Source of the DNA: a virus
Taxonomy: Duplodnaviria; Caudoviricetes
Strand: one strand, 5' to 3'
Length of the DNA: 64,000 nucleotides
IMG/VR virus record: IMGVR_UViG_3300032007_000027
Shown: in pieces, positions 15,783 through 16,423 of the stretch
How the letters are laid out: every line of letters starts with the position of its first letter
Numbering within the stretch: the first letter of the stretch is position 1
Notes under the pieces: model-generated
What the model saw: only the letters and a program-made list of their open reading frames with translations
What the model was told of the DNA's origin: nothing
Databases searched by the model: none
Translations under genes and position numbers: made by a program

Positions 15783-16423
15783 AAAGTTTTTACAGAACTT
15801 TTTAACTGTCACAAAATATCTATCAAGTCTTTTCTAGTCAAACTTTTAAAAAATTTTATGAAATTTGTAATCAAATTAGTATCAATATTGTTTTTACAGA
15901 ACAATAAAACTGTTTGTTTCCAAATCGTTGTAGTTTTTACGGAAAACTACAAAACCGTTTTTACGATGTTTGAAATCATTGCAGTTTTTACAGAACTGCA
16001 AACTGTCTCTAAAATTTTATAATCCCCCCGAAACCCCACGCCGTAAATGTGTGGGGAGAAAAGTAAAAAATAAAATATAATTCAAAGTCCTAAGACTTAG
16101 TTATGCGTATTTAATTGCTGTTACCACAATTAAAATCCGACCTCATCTCGACAATGACATTAAGGCTTGTTAGATCTTATTGTAAGGCATTTATTACTTC
16201 AACCTTATCATTTCGATGCTAGAGCATTGATCTGATGCGTCAACCAAAGGTAGCATGACCCTAATATCGTAGTTTAGATTTCTCTAAACTTAGTCTGGTA
16301 AACTGTTATTTAATGAAAGCCACACCCCTTTAGGGGGTGGGGTAGTTTACAGTTTTTGTAGGAGGTGAGCATATAAAATCTCAGAGAGAACAGTTGCAGT
16401 TTTTACGGAACTGCAAAACCGTC
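15783..16423 (-). ncRNA. five ~29-nt H-type pseudoknot repeats, array interrupted by the omega-RNA element
   Basis: Copies at 15783-15810, 15886-15913, 15928-15958, 15979-16007, 16394-16423 with compensatory changes in both stems. Confidence 0.65.
16021..16350 (-). mobile_element. non-autonomous IS200/IS605 element carrying a HEARO/IscB omega-RNA-like scaffold, no ORF
   Basis: Reverse complement GTAAACTACCCC-hairpin...ACCAGACTAAG...CTACG...CATTGTCGAG; hairpins at both ends; TTAT flank. Confidence 0.7.

Follow-up and report, generated by a model that had tools for sequence, protein, structure and literature searches.

Five H-type pseudoknots of ~30 nt each are encoded on the minus strand between positions 15781 and 16422 of the window, by which we mean the whole 64,000-nt stretch of phage DNA that was analyzed. 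We consider it slightly better than an even bet (probability of ~0.5) that these five units form a "pseudo-ToxI" array, in which a ToxI-type antitoxin is repeated without its toxin and whose RNAs would act as decoys against ToxN-type abortive infection. The array has the pseudoknot fold, shares its motif with the repeat of a toxIN locus, lies in a record without a toxin gene, and belongs to a lineage in which the copy number has expanded. Like pseudo-ToxI, it is an intergenic, ToxI-like phage RNA with no toxin gene.

Each unit consists of ACRG, the loop UU, a 5′ half of stem 2 that ends in GUU, CYGU, the loop AAA, and a 3′ half of stem 2 that starts with AAC. An earlier note on this DNA had described five minus-strand knots, and reading the sequence located every one of them where the note had put it. 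Unit 1 (16394 to 16422) has the stem 1 ACGG/CCGU and an 8-bp stem 2; ACAG pairs with CUGU in unit 2 (15979 to 16006), unit 4 (15885 to 15913), and unit 5 (15781 to 15809); and unit 3 (15928 to 15958) combines ACGG/CCGU with a UU inserted before the 3′ strand of stem 1. The units differ from one another in the sequence of stem 2, and their starts are irregularly spaced, at 416, 48, 45, and 104 nt. The window has exactly five copies of the 12-mer TTCYGTAAAAAC, all of them within the array, and this 12-mer is absent from the rest of the 104,401-nt virus record to which the window belongs. When the window was searched with R1, a covariance model built from the 10 copies of alignment A1, all of which come from other phages, units 1 to 5 scored 39.7, 36.8, 33.4, 39.0, and 33.7 bits, respectively, relative to 17.4 bits for the next-best match. 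A search of the whole 104-kb record had the same outcome, with only the five units recovered.

Since the single-sequence folding energies of the units were unremarkable (z of +0.3 to −2.0), the case for the fold rests on covariation. The compensatory changes that the earlier note had seen in both stems are real and are supported by statistics on 66 distinct sequences. In the alignment of these sequences (A3, 66 distinct rows), pairing reached 99.2% in stem 1, where both partners vary at two of the four pairs, and 99.5% in the core of stem 2, where all four Watson-Crick types are in use; the covariation score of this alignment was reached by none of 500 shuffles. Stem 1 typically has 4 bp, loop 1 has 2 to 3 nt, stem 2 has 7 to 8 bp, and loop 3 has 3 nt.

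Scans of IMG/VR in which pairing was left free gave similar results. With the loop and flanks fixed, the pairing of stem 2 free, and all four purine/pyrimidine (R/Y) combinations allowed, we obtained 51 distinct hits, 38 of which had at least five contiguous stem 2 pairs. R and Y matched in 38/38 of the latter, and the three R/Y-mismatched hits were all without stem 2. In a second scan, the second pair of stem 1 was also freed (AYRG versus CYRU, 16 combinations). Among the matches listed, stem 1 was complementary in 48 of the 50 with a good stem 2 and in 16 of the 47 with no stem 2 (P = 3e-11 for the matches listed, Fisher test). The listed matches with a good stem 2 comprised 33 ACAG/CUGU, 6 ACGG/CCGU, 7 AUAG/CUAU, and 2 AUGG/CCAU stems, together with 1 G-U pair and 1 mismatch, and model searches added two further stem 1 variants, a 5-bp AAUGG/CCAUU (contig L038) and AGAG/CUCU (contig L250).

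Knot-less direct repeats with the core GTTCYGTAAAA are common in metagenomes, as might be expected if the motif were a repeat at the level of DNA (iterons or protein-binding sites) or a chance similarity. We regard this explanation as exceedingly improbable, since it is contradicted by compensatory changes in two interleaved helices, by the excess of G-U pairs over A-C pairs on the array-sense strand (8 versus 2), by an orientation that strictly follows the neighboring genes, and by the specificity of the model matches. Taken together, the compensatory pairs, the G-U excess, and the co-orientation with tRNAs indicate that the motif acts as RNA. None of the 4227 Rfam families matched the units at its gathering score; the best was Fusobacteriales-1 (RF02920), at 16.8 bits relative to a gathering score of 52.1, and nothing else fell below E = 2.6.

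The strongest lead to function came from bacterial genomes. The matches listed in a scan of prokaryotes (one genome per species) were mostly chance-like, and the exact motif was present in at least five Fibrobacter genomes. The minus strand of one such Fibrobacter locus, L186, carries a sigma-70-like promoter, then three units with an exact spacing of 36 nt, a strong intrinsic terminator, and a 182-amino-acid open reading frame (ORF; 952 to 1500). Its units have the same consensus as those of the phage, namely, stem 1 ACRG/CYGU, loop UU, stem 2 closing with GUU/AAC, and loop AAA, and the three carry different stem 2 sequences. The ORF matches the Pfam family ToxN_toxin over its full length (E = 4.9e-35), in addition to PADLOC AbiQ and the ToxN structures 2xd0, 4ato, and 7d8o in the PDB. 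Judged on its sequence features, L186 is a type III toxIN locus under the published definition (a promoter, tandem repeats, a terminator, and toxN [PMC3401426]). The motif of the phage units is thus the motif found in the repeats of a genuine type III locus, at L186, L279, L280, and L283 to L285.

ToxN was found in 14 of 296 Fibrobacterota genomes, where it falls into three score classes. R1 matched in Fibrobacterota only upstream of L186-class ToxN, the other two ToxN subfamilies in this phylum being accompanied by other repeats. A pattern scan detected the motif in 7 of 291 Fibrobacterota genomes; five of these are exactly the five genomes with L186-class ToxN, in which the motif lies at most ~100 nt upstream of the toxin gene on the same strand (P = 1e-9 for the co-occurrence of the motif and this ToxN class in Fibrobacterota). 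The sixth genome (L236) has an orphan array in which toxN is missing and the promoter, three units, and terminator are kept (4740 to 4900, minus strand), and the seventh has a single match ~1 kb from a contig end. Contig L250, a relative of our phage inside a misbinned "Rickettsiales" metagenome-assembled genome (MAG), and the L236 genome were both binned from one sequencing run, a link that amounts to co-sampling only.

Outside this phylum, R1 matched at none of the ToxN loci sampled in Bacillota (11/401 genomes), Fusobacteriota (37/190), and Pseudomonadota (1/401), all of which had other repeats, and no ToxN was found in the 401 Bacteroidota genomes sampled. Of the phyla sampled (Fibrobacterota, Bacillota, Fusobacteriota, Pseudomonadota, and Bacteroidota), only the first yielded a cognate toxin for the knot, and there only in Fibrobacter. 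By eye, the other toxIN repeats are laid out in the order seen here, from stem 1 through a loop to stem 2 and stem 1′ and then an A-rich loop and stem 2′, with a different sequence.

Given that the window knot and the Fibrobacter toxIN repeat are the same motif, these results support the reading of the units as ToxI mimics, to which the earlier note had been led by geometry alone; the covariance model search of phages and toxIN loci that it had proposed matched the knot in many phages and in Fibrobacter toxIN. Moreover, since the Fibrobacter array itself contains three different stem 2 sequences, a "diversified panel" such as that in the window could still be recognized.

Like ToxI of P. atrosepticum pECA1039 (PDB 2XD0/2XDD; PMC3401426), the window units are small H-type pseudoknots with an A-rich second loop, and both of the helices expected of ToxI covary. 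In contrast, their sequence is unrelated to that of P. atrosepticum ToxI, and their stem 2 is longer (7 to 8 bp). The array also departs from toxIN antitoxin arrays in having no toxin, no fixed period, and units that differ in stem 2. ToxI repeats are arranged head to tail with a fixed period of ~31 to 46 nt, whereas the window units have the irregular spacing given above, and the terminator and ToxN-family gene that follow ToxI repeats are replaced here by tRNAs.

The closest experimental precedent is the Pectobacterium phage PhiTE, whose wild type carries 1.5 pseudo-ToxI repeats and whose escape mutants carry 4.5 to 5.5; when expressed, the expanded repeats suppress ToxIN abortive infection (PMC3475682). 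The window array resembles PhiTE pseudo-ToxI in being a toxin-less, intergenic, phage-borne ToxI look-alike with a raised copy number, at five copies in this record and seven in its relative L250. Each of the two complete phage genomes that we checked has one copy, and the 5 to 7 copies found here, relative to those single copies, fit the picture of expansion seen for PhiTE. The PhiTE repeats are nevertheless near-identical, strictly tandem, selected in the laboratory, and shown to neutralize ToxN (PMC3475682), whereas the window units are putative mimics that occur in nature, differ in their stems, are partly dispersed, and sit within a tRNA/HEARO operon. Orthologous units of this record and L250 show compensatory differences: the ortholog of unit 4 has the stem 1 ACGG/CCGU in place of ACAG/CUGU, and in the ortholog of unit 5, stem 2 has changed in a compensatory manner.

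RNA anti-CRISPRs are based on solitary units that imitate the repeats of CRISPR RNA (crRNA). The decoy reading follows the same logic, in which a phage RNA mimic sequesters a defense protein, with a different defense system and a different fold.

The array is part of a noncoding operon in which, in minus-strand order, a promoter is followed by unit 1, a HEARO RNA, a G+C-rich hairpin, units 2 to 4, a second promoter-like site, unit 5, tRNA-Lys, tRNA-Asp, and a terminator. The putative sigma-70-like promoter of the operon (16545 to 16583) consists of TTGACA, ~16 to 17 nt, and TATTAT, plus a second TATAAT, and the second promoter-like site, just upstream of unit 5 (15813 to 15841), consists of TTGACT, 17 nt, and TATTTT; both were read from the sequence, as were the hairpin and the terminator. 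The −35 element of the second site is kept in L250, and it is uncertain whether transcripts from this site would contain all of unit 5. Between units 1 and 2 lies a HEARO (IscB-type omega) RNA (16136 to 16350), which the earlier note had overlooked and which matches Rfam RF02033 over its full length (92.5 bits versus a gathering score of 83). The G+C-rich hairpin after it (16034 to 16056) is a possible 3′ end or processing structure. No IscB gene adjoins the HEARO RNA; the sole RRXRR-domain match in the record is a 131-amino-acid open frame ~32 kb away and outside the window (G000:80264-80578). Only 2 to 3 nt separate unit 5 from tRNA-Lys (UUU; 15701 to 15778), which was called by ARAGORN and matched the Rfam tRNA family at 70.3 bits. 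tRNA-Asp (GUC; 15618 to 15695) was found by both ARAGORN and Rfam, and the operon ends in an intrinsic-terminator-like hairpin with a T run (15570 to 15591). All of these operon features are on the minus strand.

The record that contains the window has a G+C content of 32%, is 59% complete as estimated by CheckV, and belongs to a distant T4-like phage, the capsid protein of which matches Pfam Gp23 and shares 25 to 27% identity with proteins from T4-like phages of Vibrio and Campylobacter. [quoted passage not shown] Complete toxIN loci do occur on viral contigs (L361 and L362). We nevertheless judge this explanation to be very unlikely, since the toxin directly follows the terminator in all known loci and in Fibrobacter; here, as the earlier note had stated, no toxin gene is adjacent, and tRNA-Lys and tRNA-Asp follow the array instead. 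Furthermore, the 104-kb record, at 59% completeness, contains no match to the ToxN family (PF13958), and no relative of the Fibrobacter ToxN lies near the motif in any of the phage loci that we fetched, as searched with a profile built from close homologues only.

If the units are pseudo-ToxI decoys, the phage would transcribe them together with the HEARO RNA and the tRNAs from its own promoters, and RNases of the host, or the toxin itself, would free the knots. As the knots lie next to tRNAs, they would be open to excision by RNase P and by the enzymes that process tRNA 3′ ends; the RNase P cut at the 5′ end of tRNA-Lys, for example, would release unit 5. The freed knots would then bind a ToxN-family endoribonuclease and hold it in an inactive RNA-protein complex once the labile antitoxin of the host had decayed, such that abortive infection would fail. 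Five copies would raise the dose of decoy, and the diversity of stem 2, presumably tolerated as in the bacterial array, may limit misfolding and recombination between copies. This mechanism supposes that the host of the phage carries a cognate toxIN. Several observations run counter to this reading. Among the phyla sampled, the cognate toxin came from Fibrobacter alone. The phage units are not 36-nt head-to-tail repeats, and the Fibrobacter unit-boundary sequence was not detected in them; in addition, Crassvirales phages carry the knot, yet ToxN was absent from the 401 Bacteroidota genomes sampled, and we take the hosts of Bohxovirus and other Crassvirales to be Bacteroidota.

Dozens of contigs from uncultured phages, both T4-like and Crassvirales, carry the motif between genes. 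A tRNA or transfer-messenger RNA (tmRNA) lies within 1.5 kb in 15 of 66 instances, on the same strand every time, and in four instances a tRNA starts 2 to 6 nt after the knot. In 8 of the 66 instances, relative to 0.3 expected, the knot begins 4 to 6 nt after a T4-late-type TATAAATA box. The contigs with this box are L010, L015, L017, L021, L039, L064, L084, and L093, in which a C/A-rich leader and a conserved ORF of ~80 to 90 amino acids follow. The small ORF downstream of many copies had no family match and no hit in a protein search for named relatives, and PHROGs searches of the genes downstream of knots returned nothing informative. In the complete genome of a Bohxovirus sp. (Crassvirales; PV686213.1), the knot precedes an unusual tRNA-like RNA. 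This unannotated RNA of ~68 nt (L278:2532-2600, plus strand) starts right after the knot and has an acceptor stem, a T arm, and one other hairpin; RNAs of this type are kept, with changes, in the Crassvirales contigs L016, L027, L032, and L040.

Several phage tmRNA genes also contain the knot, which lies after the tag reading frame in the region usually occupied by pseudoknots 2 to 4 (PK2-4). Three of these tmRNA-internal knots (L060:1927-1961, L124:2347-2381, and L115:1480-1514) share their stem 2, with ACGG/CCGU as stem 1 in one and AUAG/CUAU in the others. The tmRNA pseudoknots (PK1 and PK2-4) have in common with the window units an H-type layout and an A-rich loop 3; the window units are nonetheless outside any tmRNA and stand alone, as neither ARAGORN nor Rfam detected a tmRNA in the window. 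In a Patescibacteria genome, ~50 nt separate the knot (L217:1886-1915, plus strand) from the 5′ end of the 16S rRNA downstream, and the 16S gene itself has a large insertion.

The presence of the knot in tmRNAs and in the Patescibacteria 16S leader allows for a general structural role or a different protein partner, and the alternative offered by the earlier note, nuclease-blocking pseudoknots, is likewise conceivable. In the case of a structural role, the knot would be a general nuclease-resistant module that caps or delimits the precursors of stable RNAs (tRNA, tmRNA, rRNA, and HEARO) and some mRNAs, protecting their ends or insulating their folding, and the Fibrobacter antitoxin would have reused the fold. 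The intergenic position of the knot, its invariable co-orientation with neighboring tRNAs, the tRNAs and TATAAATA boxes located a few nucleotides from it, and its occurrence at the PK2-4 place and in the 16S leader all fit such a role, and the PK1 consensus of the Rfam tmRNA alignment is similarly laid out. We still think this unlikely, given that the two complete phage genomes have just one copy apiece, an unusual number for a general transcript cap, and that the near-identity of the loop and junction nucleotides in widely differing phages points to a single common partner. A structural module also leaves the tight tie to one Fibrobacter ToxN subfamily unexplained.

A different protein partner would make the array a decoy or sponge for another conserved host protein, such as an RNase, ribosomal protein S1, or a toxin of another type III family; alternatively, the knot could work in cis as a put- or nut-like antitermination element. 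Such roles would suit the several copies in an untranslated operon, the motif in stable-RNA leaders, and the phages whose presumed Bacteroidota hosts yielded no ToxN in the genomes sampled. We nevertheless find them distinctly unlikely, in that no partner was identified, the fold accounts for all of the conserved nucleotides, and no consistent boxA-like or terminator context recurs across loci.

Returning to the pseudo-ToxI reading, a broader version of it is that the knot represents one widespread family of natural antitoxin mimics, spread across dozens of unrelated phage lineages (T4-like, Crassvirales, and others), lodged in tRNA operons, tmRNAs, and late-gene leaders, and amplified into stem-diversified arrays where ToxN-type selection is strong. 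We put this forward tentatively, as a possibility that is more doubtful than not. If it holds, counterdefense by RNA mimics of type III antitoxins would be common in nature rather than a laboratory curiosity, and further, unrecognized toxin families that are checked by the same knot would be expected. In the literature that we searched, PhiTE is the only experimental case of a phage RNA mimicking a type III antitoxin. What is new here is a different ToxI family that occurs without a toxin in many uncultured phage lineages and that forms a five-unit, stem-diversified array in this phage. The setting suggests tRNA processing and stable-RNA scaffolds as a route for delivering decoys, and the different stem 2 sequences at the Fibrobacter locus indicate that a ToxN can accept antitoxin units that differ in this stem, which bears on how these toxins recognize RNA. 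The Fibrobacter ToxN and the phage knots also make up a concrete pair for testing, and model R1 can be used to find new toxIN loci and new decoys.

Several other candidates were considered and rejected. A mimic of the tRNA-Tyr anticodon loop was suggested by the loop CUGUAAA and was dropped because this loop covaries with the 5′ strand and has variants that lose GUA. A preQ1-I or SAM-II riboswitch was set aside on the basis of the lack of an Rfam match, the lack of an expression platform, and the tRNAs downstream. A generic 5′ element at sigma-70 promoters received no significant support (a strict −10 box in 5 of 66 instances versus ~3 in controls), the T4-late box being the sole enriched one. 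IS200/IS605 end hairpins tied to HEARO were discarded because HEARO is absent at the other motif loci. Scanning metagenomes for tandem cores yielded generic direct repeats that lack the knot, with no R1 match in the 45 loci searched of 52, and Fusobacteriales-1 (RF02920) as a ToxN-linked array was absent from 20 Fusobacteriota ToxN loci.

Three further features were noted along the way. A 95-nt tRNA-like gene on the minus strand of the window (12207 to 12301) was left unassigned by ARAGORN, which gave it the two-base "anticodon" cg, and scored 38 bits against the Rfam tRNA family; it may be an intron-bearing or noncanonical tRNA. Partial model matches recur every ~130 nt at 45820 to 46226 of the window, marking a tandem repeat array with a period of ~130 bp. 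Finally, on the 100-kb viral contig L362 (1150 to 1460, plus strand), the array that precedes toxN combines at least three distinct families of ToxI-type repeats and may constitute a multispecificity antitoxin panel.
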